Shown piece by piece: positions 7,869 to 35,926 of a DNA stretch of 36,732 nucleotides. The translations under genes were made by a program, and so were the position numbers. Each line of letters begins with the position of its first letter. The stretch's first letter is position 1. This DNA is from a virus (lineage: Duplodnaviria > Caudoviricetes): IMG/VR virus record IMGVR_UViG_3300004106_000005, positions 1-36,732 of that record; one strand, written 5' to 3'. The notes under the pieces were generated by a model. That model did not search any database. It saw only the letters and a list, made by a program, of their open reading frames with translations, and was not told the DNA's origin.

Positions 7869-10433
7869 TTATACAATATAAGATTGTATACGTCCAGTAT
7901 TTTGTTCGTCGTCTTCTATTTCCCAAATATTTGAATCTTTCTTTGTTACAATAGGTACTTCTTCACTTGGTCGCCACACTACTAAACAGCCCAACATAGA
8001 TATTGTATCTATGCAGTCGTCATGTTTACTCTTAAAACCTGCTGGACTTGCTAGTGCTAGTTCATTTTCGTATTCTTGTATGATAGATGTTTGTCTTTTT
8101 TCAGTAGGGAAAAAGATATTATGTGCTTTAAAATGTGGAACCATGACATTAAACCTAACCATCTTGTTCGTATTGGGTCTAATCCCAGGTTGCCCATGAT
8201 TGCTGTCACTGGCTAGAGTAAAGAATATATTTTTATCCATCATTTGACTCTGAATCCATGGAATAAACCCGCCTTGCTGACCGCTAACTTCAATTCCTAC
8301 AGCCTGCGGTTTCCATTTTTGAGCCAGTCTAAATAGTTCATCCATATTCTTACCCATATTCTGCTTTGCACATACCCCGTCAACCCAAAACCATTGCCCT
8401 AGATGATTTAAAGCCCATACAGCAATTACAGAATAGTCACTAGCTTCTTTGTCGCTTGTTGCAAAGTCAGTAGTAATATAAAAATTGAAAGCACCCTTTC
8501 TCTTTAAGAGTGACTCGTAGCTATACCAGCCTATCTCATTGTCGAAGACTAGCCTATCTTCATCTGACATAATTCTCAACATTAACTCCTGGTTAAAGTT
8601 AGCAGGTAACCCTAGAGCTTGCGCTTCATTGTACTCATCTAAAACATATTCATATGTAAATCTATCTTCCCAACTGCCTTTAAAATTATTCTTATCAACA
8701 GGAAAATGTTCACAAATAGGAAATACACTTACCCCCCAAGCTCCTGATTCGACTGCTTTATACAATGGGTCACGAGCATTAAATGGAGTGCCCAGCCAAA
8801 TCATTTTTTGCTTAGTAGGACTGAGTGCTTTTGACACAGCTTTATAGACAGTATTTTCTATTGTCTTGATAATTGTTTGGGATTCAGCATCAGTATCACT
8901 AATCAAGTCATCAAGAATAGCCACTGTTGGGCGTTGCCCAAGTTCTTTTGCACCACGTACCCCTGTATTATGTGTTCTAATAAAATCATTTACTATAAAT
9001 TCCTGTAAATCTCCAGAAACAGCTATACACTGGCTAGGCTCGTCAGGGATTCTTTCGATGCTAGTGATTGCCACTAATGGTTTAAACCCAGCAGAAGTGA
9101 ATCTACAGGCTTTTTCCGCTAGTCTAAACGGATTTATAGAAATCCATATTTCAATTTTATATGTTTTCTTTAATTTTCTCTTTTTTGCGGTACCTCCAAG
9201 ACTACGCACTAAAAATGACACATCATCAACTAGTTTTTCTGAATTGCTGCAGAAATATATTTTTCTATTTTTCCATATTGAACCAGAAGAATCCATTAAA
9301 CCCCGTAGTAACTGCACTCTTTGTGCTGCTGACCCTATTAAGTAATTTTTAGGAGTGAATCTGTTACCAGTATGGTTTGTTAAGGTTAAGCTTTTATTGG
9401 TTTTACCTGCTAAACCAACACCTAATAATAATCCTAACGTGTAAGGGTCAGTTGTATACACTTGATCTGGAAAATGCACTACGTTAGTGTTTTCTATAAA
9501 GAAAAGATTTCCATGTGAAGTATTGGTACATTTATCTTTCCATTCCCTATTTTTAATACGCTGTAGTTTTAGTAAGTTTTTTGTGGTTAAGACTGCCTTA
9601 GCATAGCTGACTTTACTATTTTGGTTTAGCCTTAAAATTACACTATTTAGATGGTCTTCACATACTTTTACATAACGTCCATCTTCTAGTGAAATTTTAT
9701 ACATTGGACGGTTAAATATTTCACTTTTACCAATTACTGTAACATAGTTAGGGGAGTCTTTACTAGCAGAGTTGCCTGGATTAACCACACAGTCACCTAT
9801 CTGTACTTCAGTAATTAGTTTTTGTGTACCATCTGCCATTAGCGTTAAAGTGTCTAAACTAAGTGCTTTTGCTCCATACCCTTTAACAACGAGATTGTGC
9901 CCTTTATTATTTTTAAATTCTAAACGAATATCTGTAAATTTTCTACCATTGCCGCTTTGTTCATCATATTTAGCTGTGTTAACAAAACCACTACCATCAG
10001 TTCCCATGCTAATTCTTTGATTGGGAATCATTTTTTGTAAGAATTCACTTTCATTATAGCGAAATTCTACATTACGCCTAAGGTTTTTAACTCCATTTTC
10101 AATACTGTCTGTGACATATAAAATAAGGTTAGTTTTGCCAAAACCAGGCAAATAACCAAATGCTGCAATAAAAAGAACCAGGTATTCTCCGAATAAAGTT
10201 GTTTTACCCACACCACGATGGCAAAGGATAGCACATCGTTTGTTAAGGTTAAACACATTATCCATCATTACCAAGTGTACTAGTGGAGTTTCATTCTCTT
10301 CTGCACCTCCATTTACTTCTTTAATAAAGTTTACGAATAGCAGAGCTTCAGCAGTAGGCATGTAACCAGCAAAGGTATAGTCTACGGTGTTAAGCCACTC
10401 TTCCACAGTTTTCTTCTCGTACTTAGTTTTCAC
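7869..10433 (-). CDS. terL: Terminase large subunit (N4 gp68-like) containing a 300-aa intein
   Basis: HRGVGKTT Walker A, AILDD Walker B, WLGTPF coupling motif, nuclease YITTDFATS...DYSVI and KHDDCID; 554 aa after intein removal. Confidence 0.95.
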   Translation of the reverse strand: MKTKYEKKTVEEWLNTVDYTFAGYMPTAEALLFVNFIKEVNGGAEENETPLVHLVMMDNVFNLNKRCAILCHRGVGKTTLFGEYLVLFIAAFGYLPGFGKTNLILYVTDSIENGVKNLRRNVEFRYNESEFLQKMIPNQRISMGTDGSGFVNTAKYDEQSGNGRKFTDIRLEFKNNKGHNLVVKGYGAKALSLDTLTLMADGTQKLITEVQIGDCVVNPGNSASKDSPNYVTVIGKSEIFNRPMYKISLEDGRYVKVCEDHLNSVILRLNQNSKVSYAKAVLTTKNLLKLQRIKNREWKDKCTNTSHGNLFFIENTNVVHFPDQVYTTDPYTLGLLLGVGLAGKTNKSLTLTNHTGNRFTPKNYLIGSAAQRVQLLRGLMDSSGSIWKNRKIYFCSNSEKLVDDVSFLVRSLGGTAKKRKLKKTYKIEIWISINPFRLAEKACRFTSAGFKPLVAITSIERIPDEPSQCIAVSGDLQEFIVNDFIRTHNTGVRGAKELGQRPTVAILDDLISDTDAESQTIIKTIENTVYKAVSKALSPTKQKMIWLGTPFNARDPLYKAVESGAWGVSVFPICEHFPVDKNNFKGSWEDRFTYEYVLDEYNEAQALGLPANFNQELMLRIMSDEDRLVFDNEIGWYSYESLLKRKGAFNFYITTDFATSDKEASDYSVIAVWALNHLGQWFWVDGVCAKQNMGKNMDELFRLAQKWKPQAVGIEVSGQQGGFIPWIQSQMMDKNIFFTLASDSNHGQPGIRPNTNKMVRFNVMVPHFKAHNIFFPTEKRQTSIIQEYENELALASPAGFKSKHDDCIDTISMLGCLVVWRPSEEVPIVTKKDSNIWEIEDDEQNTGRIQSYIV
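8967..9866 (-). mobile_element. Ala1 (class 3-type) intein with degenerate LAGLIDADG homing endonuclease
   Basis: GYGAK|ALSLDT...(block B VKVCEDHL)...SQCIAV...FIRTHN|TGVRG; removal joins GYGAK-TGVRG; LAGLIDADG remnants PYTLGLLLGVG and LLRGLMDSSG. Confidence 0.92.
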
Positions 10434-11473: not shown

Positions 11474-11557
11474 AGAATATAATTTCAACTTCCACCAAGA
11501 ACTGGCGCACTACGCTTCGCTTCGTGCTTGCTCTCGTGGAAGTTGAAATTATATTCT
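11474..11557. repeat. 22-bp perfect inverted repeat with GC-rich 40-nt spacer
   Basis: AGAATATAATTTCAACTTCCAC (11474-11495) / GTGGAAGTTGAAATTATATTCT (11536-11557). Confidence 0.95.
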
Positions 11558-12353: not shown

Positions 12354-12574
12354 CTGTTATATCTCCTTGTTAAATCCAGTATACAAACTCCCCAAAAAAT
12401 GGGCAATATCTTTTTTATAATCCCCAAAAAAAGGGGATTTATAATGAGCTAAGTATTTAATATTATTATACTAAAATTGCTAGATATCTATATAAGGAAC
12501 AAAGGAGAGTAATTTCAGATAGAGGATTGGAGGAAGGTACTTATTTTTATTTTTTATTTTTATACGCTAAATTT

Positions 12575-12619
12575 TTTTTATTTTACGTGTAAATTTTATT
12601 TTTATTTTACGTGTAAATT
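12575..12619. repeat. Direct repeat (24-nt period) of TTTTTATTTTACGTGTAAATT in a T-rich tract
   Basis: Copies at 12575-12595 and 12599-12619, each with a TTTAC-GT-GTAAA dyad; a degenerate third copy lies just upstream. Confidence 0.85.
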
Positions 12620-12715
12620 CAGTACTATATAGTCGCCATTACAAATCTTGAGTATCCCCCCTACCTCTTACAAAAACAGCCTCACGTTTTTACAAGCAAG
12701 AAACTACAACAACAC

Positions 12716-20265: not shown

Positions 20266-20802
20266 ATGAATGTAAAAGCAAGACAAACCAGATCAGCCTA
20301 TATTTACATGCTCCATGATTGGTTAATGCTTTATTTGGATAAAAATTATGTAAATAGCAATCGGCTAGAAATACATAAATTATGCTTTAAAAATCAAGCA
20401 TTATTGAAAGCAAATACAAATACTTTTATATTTGAAGGTAAGTGGTATTCAGGAGGTGATAAAATTAAAGGTGGGGCAAATCGTATATTGCATATTTCGT
20501 TAAAACAGCAAATGTATAATTTATGCCATGAAAATAATTTTGAACATATAGCTAGTGTAAACCAGCTTAGTAACTACATATCGATTGTTTTGCTTAATGC
20601 TAGGCATATTAACGATTTATCTAAATTACTGCCTAGCACATTACAGTTGCCAACTAATATTTCTAATACGAGTATATTTAATATTGGTAATGAAATGACA
20701 GAAGAAGAAATTGCTGCTTTTAAAGAAAAATATAAAAAAGTAATTCATAAGCTTAACGTAAAATTACTCACCGATTTATTATTAGTATCACAAAAGGAGT
20801 AA
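20266..20802 (+). CDS. N4 gp38-like protein between helicase and polymerase
   Basis: ATG at 20266 after AGGA and the helicase stop; identity from synteny. Confidence 0.6.
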   Translation: MNVKARQTRSAYIYMLHDWLMLYLDKNYVNSNRLEIHKLCFKNQALLKANTNTFIFEGKWYSGGDKIKGGANRILHISLKQQMYNLCHENNFEHIASVNQLSNYISIVLLNARHINDLSKLLPSTLQLPTNISNTSIFNIGNEMTEEEIAAFKEKYKKVIHKLNVKLLTDLLLVSQKE

Positions 20803-22817
20803 TGCGTATGTTATCTTGTTATTTTGGTTTACAAGAGCAAGCTGCAATAGCTCGTGTGGCAATACTTATAAAAACAGCTAGTTTTAAAAATAAGCAAATC
20901 CAAAATAACTATGTGATGGGTAATCCTAACAATTATGCTGCGTTTAGCTTAGACTACCCATCATCTGGTAACTGCTCAGTAGCACACCAAAAAGGCTATT
21001 TAGCAGAGCTTTTACCCGTTATCACAGGTATGGATATTCACACGGTATTAGTAGCTGATTCGGCTTATTTTAAGACTTTAGCAGGCAAAACTAAGGCAGA
21101 CCTTTATTACGGGCATGTTTTAAAATGTGCTATCAAAGGTTACGAACATATTAACGTTATTCTAGCTCCTAATTACCAAGCCATTCTTTATAATCCTGCT
21201 TTACAGCTTAAGTTAGACTTAGCTAACCAGACAGTTATTAACTTCTTGGCAGGTACATATGCTAGCCCAGGTAAGTTAACTTTAAAAAATCCTCAGTACC
21301 CTCAGACTATCGAAGATATAACTTTAGCTTTAGCTCGACTTCACCAGTACAAATCAATTACTTGTGACATAGAGACACGAGGATTGAAATTCTACAACTG
21401 TGGAATTAGCACTATAGCTTTTGCGTGGAATCAGTGTGAAGGACTAGCCTTTGCTATAGATAGGCATAAAGATAGTGAGCAAATTAGGCTAGTATTGCGA
21501 GCATTTTTTACTCGTTATAAAGGTAAAATTATTTATCATAATGCAACATTTGATATTAAGGTATTGGTTTATCAATTATGGATGCAGCATTTAGCTGACT
21601 ATATAGGTATGCAAAAAGGTATAGAAATTTTGCACAGTAATTGTGAAGACACTAAAATTATTACTTATTTAGCCACAAATAACACTGTGGAGAATGTTTT
21701 AAAACTTAAGGTATTATCACGTGAATTTGCCGGTAATTACGCTTTAGAAGACATTACTGACACTGAAAAAGTACCTTTGCCTAAACTGCTTGAATACAAC
21801 TTAACAGACGCATGCTGCACATGGTATGTAGCTGATAAATACACACCTAAAATGATAGCTGATGACCAACTTAATACCTATGAGGTACTGTTTAAACCTG
21901 GGTTAAAAGTAATTCTACAAATGGAATTATCTGGTATGCCTATTGACCCAACACAAGTACAAAATGTTAAAGCTACACTAAAAGATATTGTTAAAGCACA
22001 TAAAGCATATATTGCTAATTCCCCCATAGTAAATGATTGTCATTATCAAATACTACAAGAAAAAGTTACTGCAGATAATCTTAAATTAAAAACAAAGGTT
22101 AGAGTAATAGAAGATTTTGCTCAAATTAAGTTTAACCCTCATAGTGATAAACAACTGCAAAGACTAATTTATGATTATTTAGGCTATGAACCAATAGATT
22201 TTACTAAAGGAGGTTTTCCATCAACAGGAGTTAAAACACTTGCTAAACTACTTAACTTTACAAAATGTGAAGAACACACATTATTACTTGAAGCATTTAT
22301 TGGATTATCCCAAGCAGACAAAATATTAACCAGCTTTATACCTGCGTTTGAACAAGCTCAACAGTTACCTGACGGTAGCTGGAGATTATATGGTAATTTT
22401 AATTTAGGGGGTACTCAGTCAGGCCGTTTATCTTCGTCTGAACCAAATCTTACTAATATTCCTTCAAATTCAATTTATGCTAAGTTAGTTAAACAAGCAT
22501 TTATATCCCCATTTGGATATATATTTTGTGGGTCAGATTTTGATTCTCTAGAGGATAAAGTAAATGCTTTGCTTACCCGTGATCCTAATAAAATGGCTGT
22601 TTATGAGCATGGTTACGATGGTCATTGCCTGCGTACATTTTATTACTTTCGAGAACAGTTACCAAATGTTAGCTTACCTGAAGATACAGATAGATGTTTT
22701 AAGTTAAACATAAACGGGCAAGAATTGTATTGTAAAAGTGGGGATTTTGTTATAGATGCCACTAATAAGAGAATTTCCGTAGAAGAGTATTACGCTGCTT
22801 GTTGCAAGGAGGGCTAA
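20802..22817 (+). CDS. Family A DNA polymerase, N-terminal polypeptide (3'-5' exonuclease, thumb, motif A)
   Basis: Exo I CDIET, Exo II HNATFD, Exo III YNLTD, GTQSGRLSS..PNL.NIP, motif A GSDFDSLE, YDGHCLR; lacks motifs B and C. Confidence 0.93.
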   Translation: MRMLSCYFGLQEQAAIARVAILIKTASFKNKQIQNNYVMGNPNNYAAFSLDYPSSGNCSVAHQKGYLAELLPVITGMDIHTVLVADSAYFKTLAGKTKADLYYGHVLKCAIKGYEHINVILAPNYQAILYNPALQLKLDLANQTVINFLAGTYASPGKLTLKNPQYPQTIEDITLALARLHQYKSITCDIETRGLKFYNCGISTIAFAWNQCEGLAFAIDRHKDSEQIRLVLRAFFTRYKGKIIYHNATFDIKVLVYQLWMQHLADYIGMQKGIEILHSNCEDTKIITYLATNNTVENVLKLKVLSREFAGNYALEDITDTEKVPLPKLLEYNLTDACCTWYVADKYTPKMIADDQLNTYEVLFKPGLKVILQMELSGMPIDPTQVQNVKATLKDIVKAHKAYIANSPIVNDCHYQILQEKVTADNLKLKTKVRVIEDFAQIKFNPHSDKQLQRLIYDYLGYEPIDFTKGGFPSTGVKTLAKLLNFTKCEEHTLLLEAFIGLSQADKILTSFIPAFEQAQQLPDGSWRLYGNFNLGGTQSGRLSSSEPNLTNIPSNSIYAKLVKQAFISPFGYIFCGSDFDSLEDKVNALLTRDPNKMAVYEHGYDGHCLRTFYYFREQLPNVSLPEDTDRCFKLNINGQELYCKSGDFVIDATNKRISVEEYYAACCKEG

Positions 22818-22825
22818 TAAATAAA

Positions 22826-22954
22826 ATGGATATTATTCTAACAAATGATACTAAAATACAAGAAATATCTAAGATAGACTATTCTGTACATACAATAAAT
22901 CAGCTTAAAAAGGAGCATGGGGCCTTACGTCAACAAAGTAAGGCCCCAACTTAA
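22826..22954 (+). CDS. DNA polymerase middle fragment (42 aa, MDIILTND...LRQQSKAPT), first half of motif B
   Basis: ATG at 22826 downstream of AAGGAGGG; ends R..SKAPT then TAA at 22952-22954; absent from the ORF track because it is short. Confidence 0.85.
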   Translation: MDIILTNDTKIQEISKIDYSVHTINQLKKEHGALRQQSKAPT

Positions 22955-22956
22955 CT
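22918..22956 (+). other. Candidate translational-bypass element: 11-bp stem-loop + ACT take-off + TAA + ACT landing
   Basis: TGGGGCCTTAC-GTCAACAAA-GTAAGGCCCCA, then ACT TA ACT TTT GCC. Confidence 0.55.
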
Positions 22957-23577
22957 TTTGCCTTAACTTATGGGGGGACATTCGCTACACTTATAAAAAA
23001 CTGTGGATTTTCTAAAGATACTGCTTTAAAAATTGAAACAAACTACCACTCATTATATAAAGTATCTGATGATTGGGTTAATGCTAAACTGGATCAAGCC
23101 AGTATTACTGGGTATGTTACTTGTGCCTTTGGTTTAAGATTGCGTACTCCTATTCTAAAGCAAACTATCTGCAACACAAACTATACCCCATTTATTGCTA
23201 TGGCTGAACGTAGATCAGCAGGTAACGCGTTAGGTCAAAGCTATTGTATGCTCAATGAAAGAGCTGCTATTGAGTTTCAAAAACGCTGTTTAGCTTCACC
23301 TTACCGTTATGATATTCATCCATCTGCACATATCCATGATGCACAATACTATGTAGTTAAAGATGATGTTCATATAGTTAAATGGGTAAATGATAATTTA
23401 ATTGAGTGTATGCGATGGAGTGACTTACCTGAGTTAAAGCATGACACTGTAAAAATGTCGTCTAAGCTTGAGTTATATTGGCCTAATTGGGCATATTCGC
23501 ATGCAGTTCCTAACACTGCTGATGAGAGTAGCATTAAAGAAATTGCTAATAAAGCCAAAATTAAACAGCATGATTAA
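22957..23577 (+). CDS. DNA polymerase C-terminal fragment (rest of motif B, motif C); no start of its own before conserved FALTYGG
   Basis: Frame of ORF 23140..23577 extends upstream as FALTYGGTFATLIKNCGFS...YHSLYKVSD.W...GYVTCAFGLRLRTP; RSAGNALGQS; motif C HIHDA. Confidence 0.9.
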   Translation, partial: FALTYGGTFATLIKNCGFSKDTALKIETNYHSLYKVSDDWVNAKLDQASITGYVTCAFGLRLRTPILKQTICNTNYTPFIAMAERRSAGNALGQSYCMLNERAAIEFQKRCLASPYRYDIHPSAHIHDAQYYVVKDDVHIVKWVNDNLIECMRWSDLPELKHDTVKMSSKLELYWPNWAYSHAVPNTADESSIKEIANKAKIKQHD

Positions 23578-24010
23578 AGAACTCAATCTGTGTATACCAG
23601 GACAGCCAATTTCTAAAGCTAGACATAAGCTTGCTCGTAGGGGTAAGTTTATACATATGTATAACCCTCAGCATAAGCAAAATGACGAATTTAAGCAGTG
23701 TGTAATACAACAATTACCAAAAAATTTTACTTGCTTTAATGGCTTAGTGAAAATTGAAATTATTTTTCATATTGCAAGACCTAAAAGCCACTATGGCATA
23801 GGTAAAAAAAGTGATTGTTTAAAATTAAACATGCCTTTATACCCTATGACAAAACCTGACATCGACAATTATACTAAGTACGTGTACGATTGTTTTAACC
23901 AGGTTATTTGGGAAGATGACTCATTAGTTTATGAATCTCGTGAACGTAAAGTCTACTCTAATACACCTAAAACATTAATTCATGTTATAGGAGAGTACAC
24001 AAATGGCTAG
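23570..24010 (+). CDS. rusA: RusA-family Holliday junction resolvase (copy 1)
   Basis: PG.PI.K.R, RPKSHY, KPDIDNY.K...D..N...W.DD..V; ATG at 23570 overlaps the end of the polymerase gene. Confidence 0.88.
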   Translation: MIKELNLCIPGQPISKARHKLARRGKFIHMYNPQHKQNDEFKQCVIQQLPKNFTCFNGLVKIEIIFHIARPKSHYGIGKKSDCLKLNMPLYPMTKPDIDNYTKYVYDCFNQVIWEDDSLVYESRERKVYSNTPKTLIHVIGEYTNG

Positions 24011-25159: not shown

Positions 25160-25236
25160 GGGTGTGTATCCCAACTGGCAGAGGAAAAGGACTTAAAATC
25201 CTTCAAGTGTGGGTTCGAATCCCTCCACGCCTACCA
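25160..25236 (+). tRNA. tRNA-Leu (anticodon TAA), short variable arm, encoded CCA
   Basis: Acceptor GGGTGTG/CACGCCT, D-loop CTGGCA, anticodon arm AAGGA-CTTAAAA-TCCTT, T-loop TTCGAAT, ends ACCA. Confidence 0.9.
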
Positions 25237-35352: not shown

Positions 35353-35513
35353 CTGATATTACCAAATGTGGAACAACATCGTGTCCGTTAGCTGACAAGT
35401 GCTACCGCAAGATAGCACCAGACGACATATACGCGCAGGGCTACGCCTATTTCGTCTATTCGGACAAGGACGGAAAGATTGAGTGTAGCCATTTCTATGA
35501 GAGGGGCAAATGA
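35349..35513 (+). CDS. Small Cys-rich phage protein (54 aa, MTDITKC...CP....CYR...C)
   Basis: GAGGAGG SD; ATGA overlaps on both sides. Confidence 0.7.
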   Translation: MTDITKCGTTSCPLADKCYRKIAPDDIYAQGYAYFVYSDKDGKIECSHFYERGK

Positions 35514-35926
35514 GAATCTCAATTCCCGGTGAACCAATAGCCCAGCAGCGTCCACGATTTGCCAGACGGGGAAAGTTTGTCCATACCTATAACCCGCAGG
35601 AGACAGAGGCCGGACGTTGGCTATTGACAGCCAGACAGCAGATCAAAAGAAAGATGGAAGGGGCGCTAAAGGTAGAGATTGAGGCGGTATTCTCACGGCC
35701 TAAATCGCACTACGGGACAGGAGCTAACGCTACCGTGTTGAGATCAGCGGCAGCTAGGCATTGTACACACAAAAAGGATGTCGATAACATCGCTAAATTC
35801 GCGCTTGATTGCCTAAACGGTGAGGCGTGGGCCGATGATAAGCAGGTGGTGAGCCTCGCCGTAACGAAACGCTGGGCGGTGTGGGGTGAGGATGCCGCGA
35901 CAGAGATTGAGGTGTCGGAAATATGA
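35510..35926 (+). CDS. rusA: RusA-family Holliday junction resolvase (copy 2)
   Basis: PGEPI...RPR, RPKSHY, KKDVDN.AK..LD.LNG.AW.DD.QV. Confidence 0.9.
   Translation: MRISIPGEPIAQQRPRFARRGKFVHTYNPQETEAGRWLLTARQQIKRKMEGALKVEIEAVFSRPKSHYGTGANATVLRSAAARHCTHKKDVDNIAKFALDCLNGEAWADDKQVVSLAVTKRWAVWGEDAATEIEVSEI

Follow-up and report, generated by a model that had tools for sequence, protein, structure and literature searches.

The family A DNA polymerase gene of an N4-like phage is interrupted within motif B by five bases that begin with a stop codon, and ribosomes probably cross this gap by a 5-nt stop-hop, which would make tolerable an insert that likely gave the gene protection against its own homing nuclease. 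We regard a ribosomal hop, a rare mode of decoding, as the most likely route because similar breaks of 1-48 bases recur among relatives, mostly beside a nuclease gene, while selection on the polymerase persists. In the proposed mechanism, peptidyl-tRNA-Thr would detach from an ACU codon with UAA in the A site, slide five bases forward and re-pair at an overlapping ACU, and decoding would restart at UUU. Refolding of a hairpin behind the ribosome would likely power the forward slide. The predicted product is a 248-aa subunit with an intact motif B, containing the junction peptide APTFALTYGGTFATLIK, and the two halves of the polymerase presumably bind each other. The insert itself probably survives from a mobile homing cassette consisting of a tail, an HNH nuclease, a leader and the insert, within which it would guard the gene against the cassette's own nuclease.

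The DNA analyzed here, hereafter the window, is the whole 36,732-nt virus record IMGVR_UViG_3300004106_000005. Its N4-like gene neighborhood includes portal, terminase, a two-part N4-like RNA polymerase, primase and SSB, and its polymerase is an N4-like (Schitoviridae-type) family A enzyme with Pol A and exonuclease domains and motifs B and C all present. The virion RNA polymerase lies outside the window, so the family placement of the phage rests on neighbors and homologs. The layout of the split gene is given in Table 1.

Table 1. Features of the split DNA polymerase gene and of the break in motif B (window positions).
Feature	Positions	Strand	Basis
Pol A N-terminal gene, 671 aa (3'-5' exonuclease, thumb, motif A)	20802..22817	+	
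Apparently cassette-derived C-terminal tail (CTE), ~50 aa, common to split relatives, with a profile like the T4 gp39 C-terminal extension	22662..22814	+	
Shine-Dalgarno-like AGGAGG, 13 nt 5' of the ATG of the second gene	22807..22812	+	sequence
8-nt spacer; slot of the NUMOD4-HNH endonuclease gene in relatives, presumably lost here	22818..22825	+	
42-aa ORF: apparently cassette-derived N-terminal leader (NTE) and first half of motif B, R-Q-Q-S-K-A-P-T-stop	22826..22954	+	
5' stem-loop, 11 bp, last base adjoining the take-off codon	22918..22948	+	
Predicted take-off codon ACT (Thr42)	22949..22951	+	sequence
5-nt coding gap, TAA plus 2 nt; predicted landing ACT at 22954-56	22952..22956	+	sequence
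206-codon frame: second half of motif B and motif C (H-D-A)	22957..23577	+	

The break falls between the K and the F/Y of motif B, and the predicted landing codon shares the last A of the stop (TAA, 22952-54). Coordinates given in the first-pass annotation for the stem arms, the ACT/TAA/ACT series, the 42-aa ORF and the downstream frame all proved correct, as did its calculation that skipping 22952-22956 joins the 42-aa ORF to a 206-aa open frame (42 + 206 = 248 aa). Motif B aligns without gaps to the Klenow fragment. In the downstream frame no start codon precedes the essential F and Y, the first ATG, GTG or TTG being codon 62. The AACTT AACTT tandem duplication is likewise present at 22948-57, one of 53 window positions at which some 5-nt tandem duplication begins. 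Neither a take-off stem nor a well-spaced mini-SD was found in the window; an AAGG lies 10 nt before the landing site, within the stem.

The first-pass annotation allowed for mutation or assembly error as the simple source of the extra bases and proposed a check that the 5-nt insert is fixed. The window sequence was matched in 17 public runs labeled as groundwater or aquifer metagenomes. In six of eight runs (X1-X3, a possible source of the window, and X4, X5 and X8, further runs; the other two had no cover), a contig, as distinct from raw reads, bridges the site with the insert present and no indel. No deletion form appeared among these six bridging runs, at the level of contigs, from which assembly drops rare variants. 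A strain (L001) 99.1% identical to the window also carries the insert. Insertion in all six bridging runs, recurrence in relatives and selection together lead us to reject the mutation or assembly-error explanation; the core stop-hop reading, giving S-K-A-P-T-F, is the best-supported one.

Scans of viral and metagenome sequences showed the same motif to be broken in related N4-like Pol A genes, with about 32 distinct alleles: 15 with 5-nt gaps at two Thr sites, five with 40-48-nt gaps, four with 6-nt inserts and eight with one extra base. Because the metagenome scan covered 43 of 64 parts and its patterns demanded a G after Lys, the numbers of alleles are minima rather than frequencies. The site-1 patterns accepted any insert; neither they nor the scan for short gaps at site 2, which used the CAA codon only, demanded a stop codon. 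True polymerase was present at 14 of the 120 metagenome loci from pattern scans, and de-duplication left 58 unsplit and four split intact alleles. Of 121 viral loci selected by protein similarity alone, the best 80 mostly carry an unbroken R-x-x-x-K-x-P-T-F-x-L-T-Y, and two further lineages have a stop at the same spot. At site 1, the ten 5-nt alleles (Thr codon, stop, 2 nt; two of them are this phage) and the four 6-nt alleles (Pro codon, stop, 3 nt) are all split, as are seven of the 1-nt alleles, which bear an additional T before Phe; the eighth is otherwise arranged. Site 2 lies four codons on, after F-A-L-T, where 11 hits for long inserts contain five distinct 40-48-nt gaps and another 11 hits, for short inserts, five distinct 5-nt gaps (seven loci). 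A genome scan of bacteria and archaea gave no polymerase match among 120 loci. Tail and leader queries, which are short and weakly sensitive, found the cassette in none of the cultured phages, among which 475 records contain the downstream part; in Vibrio phage JA-1, an HNH gene splits the polymerase farther upstream.

A stop comes first in all 19 of the five- and six-base alleles, with all three stop codons in use, and the pattern scans of relatives found no sense two-codon insert. A pattern starting with AAAG returned 54 loci and no true insert; the AAA-bearing allele L219 was found by another pattern. Independently, at the protein level, the leader profile matched 46 short proteins, which end in K-x-P-T (22), K-A-P-S (2) or K-x-P (8), read on out of frame past P-T-F (8), stop shortly after F-A-L-T (5), or combine a different leader with a K-A-P-T end (1). 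All 24 full-length leader-bearing proteins read P-T-F. The stop-first arrangement, the lack of sense inserts and the constancy of P-T-F in these 24 proteins argue for exact removal of the gap over readthrough or a -1 shift. One full-length protein, P0071, known from a protein record only, joins a leader of the L098 type to an intact frame and counts against the hop. A recoded genetic code was considered and rejected, since all three stops are used at the site and terminate other genes.

The classes differ in the signals they carry. The long-gap alleles (L044:3921-4020, L401, L406, L407 and L408) have a Thr take-off, a 5' stem and a strong internal stem; Thr landings occur in five of five, although the pattern did not demand them, and a purine-rich stretch lies about 6 nt before the landing. 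Judged by these features, the 40-48-nt gaps are candidates for full gene-60-like bypassing in N4-like Pol A. The L044 insert had been entertained as a group I intron, a candidate set aside when Rfam and the sequence pointed to a 47-nt bypass-like gap instead. L410 and L412-L417 carry the 5-nt stop gap at motif B's second Thr, and in each of them the 5' stem is relocated. The 6-nt in-frame stop insert follows Pro in L087, L069, L091 and L245, and the upstream stem is absent from them. This class may use readthrough, or a hop whose landing is wobble-paired or unmatched; it includes one unmatched landing (CCG to ACA), which, together with stems in none of four, counts against the hop reading. Eight alleles (L099, L182, L201, L210, L262, L266, L272 and L041) have one extra T before Phe and weaker stems. 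UUU-pyrimidine is shift-prone in E. coli, and this class fits a candidate programmed +1 shift at such a site.

N4 needs its DNA polymerase, and the downstream part of the interrupted gene is under purifying selection in relatives, as judged from substitution ratios. In the downstream frame, dN/dS of close pairs is 0.06 for 5-nt alleles (L098/L232) and 0.03 for 1-nt alleles (L182/L266); intact pairs give 0.01-0.07 and distant pairs 0.06-0.13, the latter near saturation. The frame is open in all interrupted alleles. The window and L001 show zero differences there, so selection is demonstrated for the relatives and not for this phage itself.

The perfect GC-rich stem described in the first-pass annotation is exact, with 11 bp, 7 G/C and a 9-nt loop; the window contains three perfect stems of at least 11 bp against 0-2 in ten shuffles, so the stem alone is only modestly unusual. 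Its fold z-score is -3.4 against dinucleotide shuffles and -4.1 against synonymous-codon shuffles. Across site-1 alleles, a stem at p<=0.05 versus synonymous shuffles occurs in 10/10 of the 5-nt class, 5/7 of the 1-nt class and 0/4 of the 6-nt class, compared with 0/4 split intact and 5/58 unsplit (fused) intact controls. The site-2 take-off uses a different stem, found with five of five short and four of five long gaps versus 6/62 intact alleles. In 16 of 19 alleles the last base of the stem sits at -1 or 0, counted from the Thr take-off. Two pairing registers exist; in the 12-pair register both sides have changed in 6 of 12 pairs (0/500 shuffles), and the window's own register (A) alone gave no significant covariation. 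L001 has one stem mismatch (-14.2 vs -21.4 kcal/mol), which counts against the hop reading. The comparison of alleles indicates that the 5' stem is under selection where the gene is interrupted. The alternative pairing of CCCCA with TGGGG around the stop, raised in the first-pass annotation, has a folding energy of -5.0 kcal/mol and an equilibrium probability of about 1e-8 and is not supported; the idea that the hop gates polymerase expression likewise found no support.

Codon matching between take-off and landing, which had been listed as a hallmark of bypassing, is present in this allele (ACT/ACT) and is not general, with Thr landings in five of 13 distinct 5-nt types and GCT, GTG, ATA or ATT in the others. 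The landing triplet is always R-Y-N, which pairs with the Thr anticodon by Watson-Crick or G-U pairs under the wobble rules; GTG, ATA and ATT require one or two G-U pairs. In 12 of 13 types the third base of the landing tracks the purine/pyrimidine class of the take-off's third base; the Fisher p of 0.007 is optimistic because the alleles are related and origin by 5-nt duplication alone yields matched codons. Among the related polymerases, the stem shifts with the take-off between sites, and exact codon identity holds in 5/13 types. Taken together, the stem, landing and third-base data favor re-pairing of a peptidyl-tRNA-Thr after a slide of five bases.

The first-pass annotation overlooked what accounts for the insert: the gene was likely split by a mobile HNH-nuclease cassette, of which a remnant persists, much as mobA split genes 39/60 in T4. 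Nearly all interrupted alleles share a layout in which a C-terminal tail, an HNH nuclease and an N-terminal leader divide the gene, so that the N-terminal gene ends with a foreign tail of ~50 residues and the second gene opens with a foreign leader. All nine nuclease ORFs tested are NUMOD4-HNH (Pfam). Similarity places an HNH gene directly upstream of 23 out of the 26 interrupted alleles whose flank reaches 250 nt or more, of two of six with shorter flanks, and of none of the four split alleles with an intact motif. In the window the tail and leader lie 8 nt apart and the nuclease is absent; this phage appears to have lost it and kept the split and the insert. On a polymerase tree (quick method, downstream part, 78 rows of at least 150 residues, partial loci excluded), the 5-nt alleles are scattered, requiring six changes, at least three of them forced by strong branches, and among 26 loci near one lineage the leader occurs in only two, the two with the gap. 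This scatter and the co-occurrence of leader and gap point to the tail-nuclease-leader-insert cassette as a mobile element.

The tail profile matches the last 60 residues of T4 gp39 (hhalign; E 1.8e-4, probability 48%, score 22.5), and the score exceeds those of all 250 decoy C-termini (maximum 15.1) and 100 shuffles (maximum 16.3). Because the alignment is short, the profile match makes homology of the two tails likely rather than proven. The leader profile showed no similarity to T4 gp60, and the cassette NUMOD4-HNH no match to the degenerate mobA region of T4. Tail and leader were also considered as an intein remnant, on grounds of resemblance, and this was rejected for lack of Pfam support or a Hint family. 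No group I intron ribozyme core was detected by Rfam, which reported only a tRNA in the window and nothing in L044. An AlphaFold model of an intact split relative is uninformative, with pLDDT under 50 over residues 1-60. A second HNH split site, with its own leader, lies just upstream of G-Y-D-G-H in L010, L041 and protein P0048, and can coexist with motif-B inserts. In L014 (3135-3872), L027 and L071, which are split with the motif intact, other genes occupy the nuclease slot, that of L014 encoding a Thoeris anti-defence Tad2-like domain.

Other routes across the gap were weighed against the stop-hop. A -1 frameshift, with readthrough in the 6-nt class, would add two residues to motif B (P-x-L-T-F) and appears very unlikely to us. 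The 5-nt insert read in -1 and the 6-nt insert read through give equal lengths, often with P-x-L-T-F, and C-CCN in many alleles would permit a Pro slip. However, all 62 intact alleles share one motif spacing, as do the 24 full-length leader proteins and Klenow, in agreement with the earlier judgement that a slip inserting two residues fits less well; a sense 6-nt allele was not found in the scans though it would be favored, nor does this route account for the same 5-nt gap when it lies at the second Thr, for the long gaps or for the third-base covariation. Termination with coupled re-initiation would instead build a three-chain polymerase, the last chain starting at a non-AUG codon that overlaps the stop, with the stem masking an AAGG ribosome-binding site until it is melted; we hold this to be very unlikely. 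Stop/start overlaps do occur in three types (TA-GTG, TA-ATA, TA-ATT), and AAG-G is present in 20/21 split interrupted site-1 alleles vs 18/58 fused intact ones, a pattern-biased comparison. Against this, the codon in the window is ACT, the commonest is GCT and ATG occurs in none of 13 types; motif B would be severed between K and F/Y, and the 1-nt class and the long gaps with Thr landings do not fit.

Removal of the five bases from the RNA, by hairpin-stimulated realignment of RNA polymerase over AACUU or by cutting and rejoining, has similarly little probability in our assessment. Hairpin-stimulated transcriptional slippage is a known phenomenon, and both the hairpin directly upstream and the perfect 5-nt tandem repeat here, with near-repeats in L410 and L413, would suit it; yet most alleles have no repeat (L164, L226, L219), Rfam found no intron in the window or L044, and a terminator-like U tract is absent. 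A dead gene, an artefactual insert or a phase switch at the DNA level is largely refuted and we give it scarcely any credence. The AACTT duplication is compatible with it, as is a single intact contig (P0063) beside many 1-nt alleles of one lineage, but the insert is present in all six bridging runs with no deletion form in contigs, about 32 alleles are hit at one motif under purifying selection, and the polymerase part is single-copy in the window, a partial genome.

Programmed bypassing is established in T4 gene 60 and topoisomerase homologs, in yeast mitochondrial byps and in one Streptomyces phage. The closest parallel to the stop-hop proposed here is T4 39/mobA/60, in which an essential gene is likewise split by an HNH nuclease and has gained a C-terminal tail and an N-terminal leader. 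Further likenesses are an insert 42-46 codons into the second gene, a stop after the take-off, a 5' stem, a nuclease that can be lost with the insert kept, and a tail similar to that of gp39. The 40-48-nt relatives also resemble gene 60 in their stem, mini-SD-like stretch and matched landings (5/5 Thr/Thr). In contrast, the target here is motif B of N4-like Pol A rather than the large-subunit gene of a topoisomerase, the codons are Thr rather than Gly/Asp, and the gap is 5 nt rather than 20-50 nt; the window has neither a take-off stem nor a mini-SD 5-7 nt before the landing, the leader is unlike that of gp60, the nuclease is NUMOD4-HNH, and the landing is often by wobble only. The differences in target gene, gap length and take-off stem place the element outside T4 mobA/gene 60, though it would work in a like manner.

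The accessible text on MobA in T4-like topoisomerase genes describes an HNH nuclease that splits the gene and adds a tail and a leader, a bypass insert that blocks self-nicking, and occasional loss of the nuclease with the insert retained; it presents MobA as exclusive to Topo2L, contains no mention of a polymerase, and gives 20 nt as the shortest gap (10.1101/2022.08.31.505936). The same portion describes Aeh1 nrdA, split by the free-standing HNH MobE with tails that permit a two-chain enzyme; this case differs in its target, and no recoding insert is described for it there (10.1101/2022.08.31.505936). Synthetic stop-hops in E. coli, as far as the available part of the report goes, use matched codons around a stop, and no natural in-frame stop hop was known in 2016 (PMC5009743). 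Our candidate shares with them the matched codons and the few bases skipped, and differs in being natural, in a landing that overlaps the stop, in the change of frame and in the conserved stem (PMC5009743). In the Streptomyces phage Hau3 terminase, bypassing was shown by a junction peptide in E. coli with a UAA variant; it too is a short natural phage gap, but its natural pause is a rare UUA codon, a regulatory role is proposed and a homing nuclease goes unmentioned in the accessible text (PMC10732093). An N4-like Pol A without such a split appears in the available part of PMC10201439, and HNH-split DNAP of Vibrio phages in that of PMC3670811. We found no report of bypassing in N4-like or any other family A polymerase gene in the full-text literature outside subscription journals, including the accessible parts of PMC7576135, PMC8300805 and 10.1101/2024.12.09.627546.

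A broader reading, whose chances seem to us evenly balanced, is that a sister element of MobA colonized N4-like polymerases and carries a natural recoding series of 40-48-nt bypasses, 5-nt stop-hops, 6-nt stemless hops and +1 shifts; as part of this same reading, the 5-nt hops would occur at two Thr codons, be driven by the 5' hairpin alone and land by wobble. If true, among natural programmed bypasses the 5-nt form would be the shortest, and it would directly test whether forward sliding is powered by the hairpin as it refolds behind the ribosome. The polymerase would then be a second, unrelated essential target, and gaps of 1-48 bases in one mobile cassette would amount to a natural deletion series that could tell which signals a jump of 5 bases needs and which one of 47, if a 5' hairpin is enough, and how loose the landing may be. 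It would also lend support to the view that homing nucleases, as a general rule, exert selection for recoded inserts within conserved motifs, and would mean that interrupted polymerase genes of this kind are mis-annotated as broken.

Several other features of the window were observed. The terminase large subunit (7869-10433, minus strand, 854 aa) has a LAGLIDADG-like domain (373-425) and, near residue 491, an H-N-T end, and probably contains an intein, judging from these motifs. A tRNA-Leu (anticodon TAA) lies at 25160-25236, and two RusA-like resolvase genes lie at 23567-24010 and 35510-35926. Non-coding DNA at 11474-11557 holds a perfect 22-nt inverted repeat with arms 40 nt apart. AT-rich direct repeats at 12540-12640 are near a probable genome end, with portal and terminase to their left and early RNA polymerase genes to their right, a pattern of circularly permuted N4-like assemblies.
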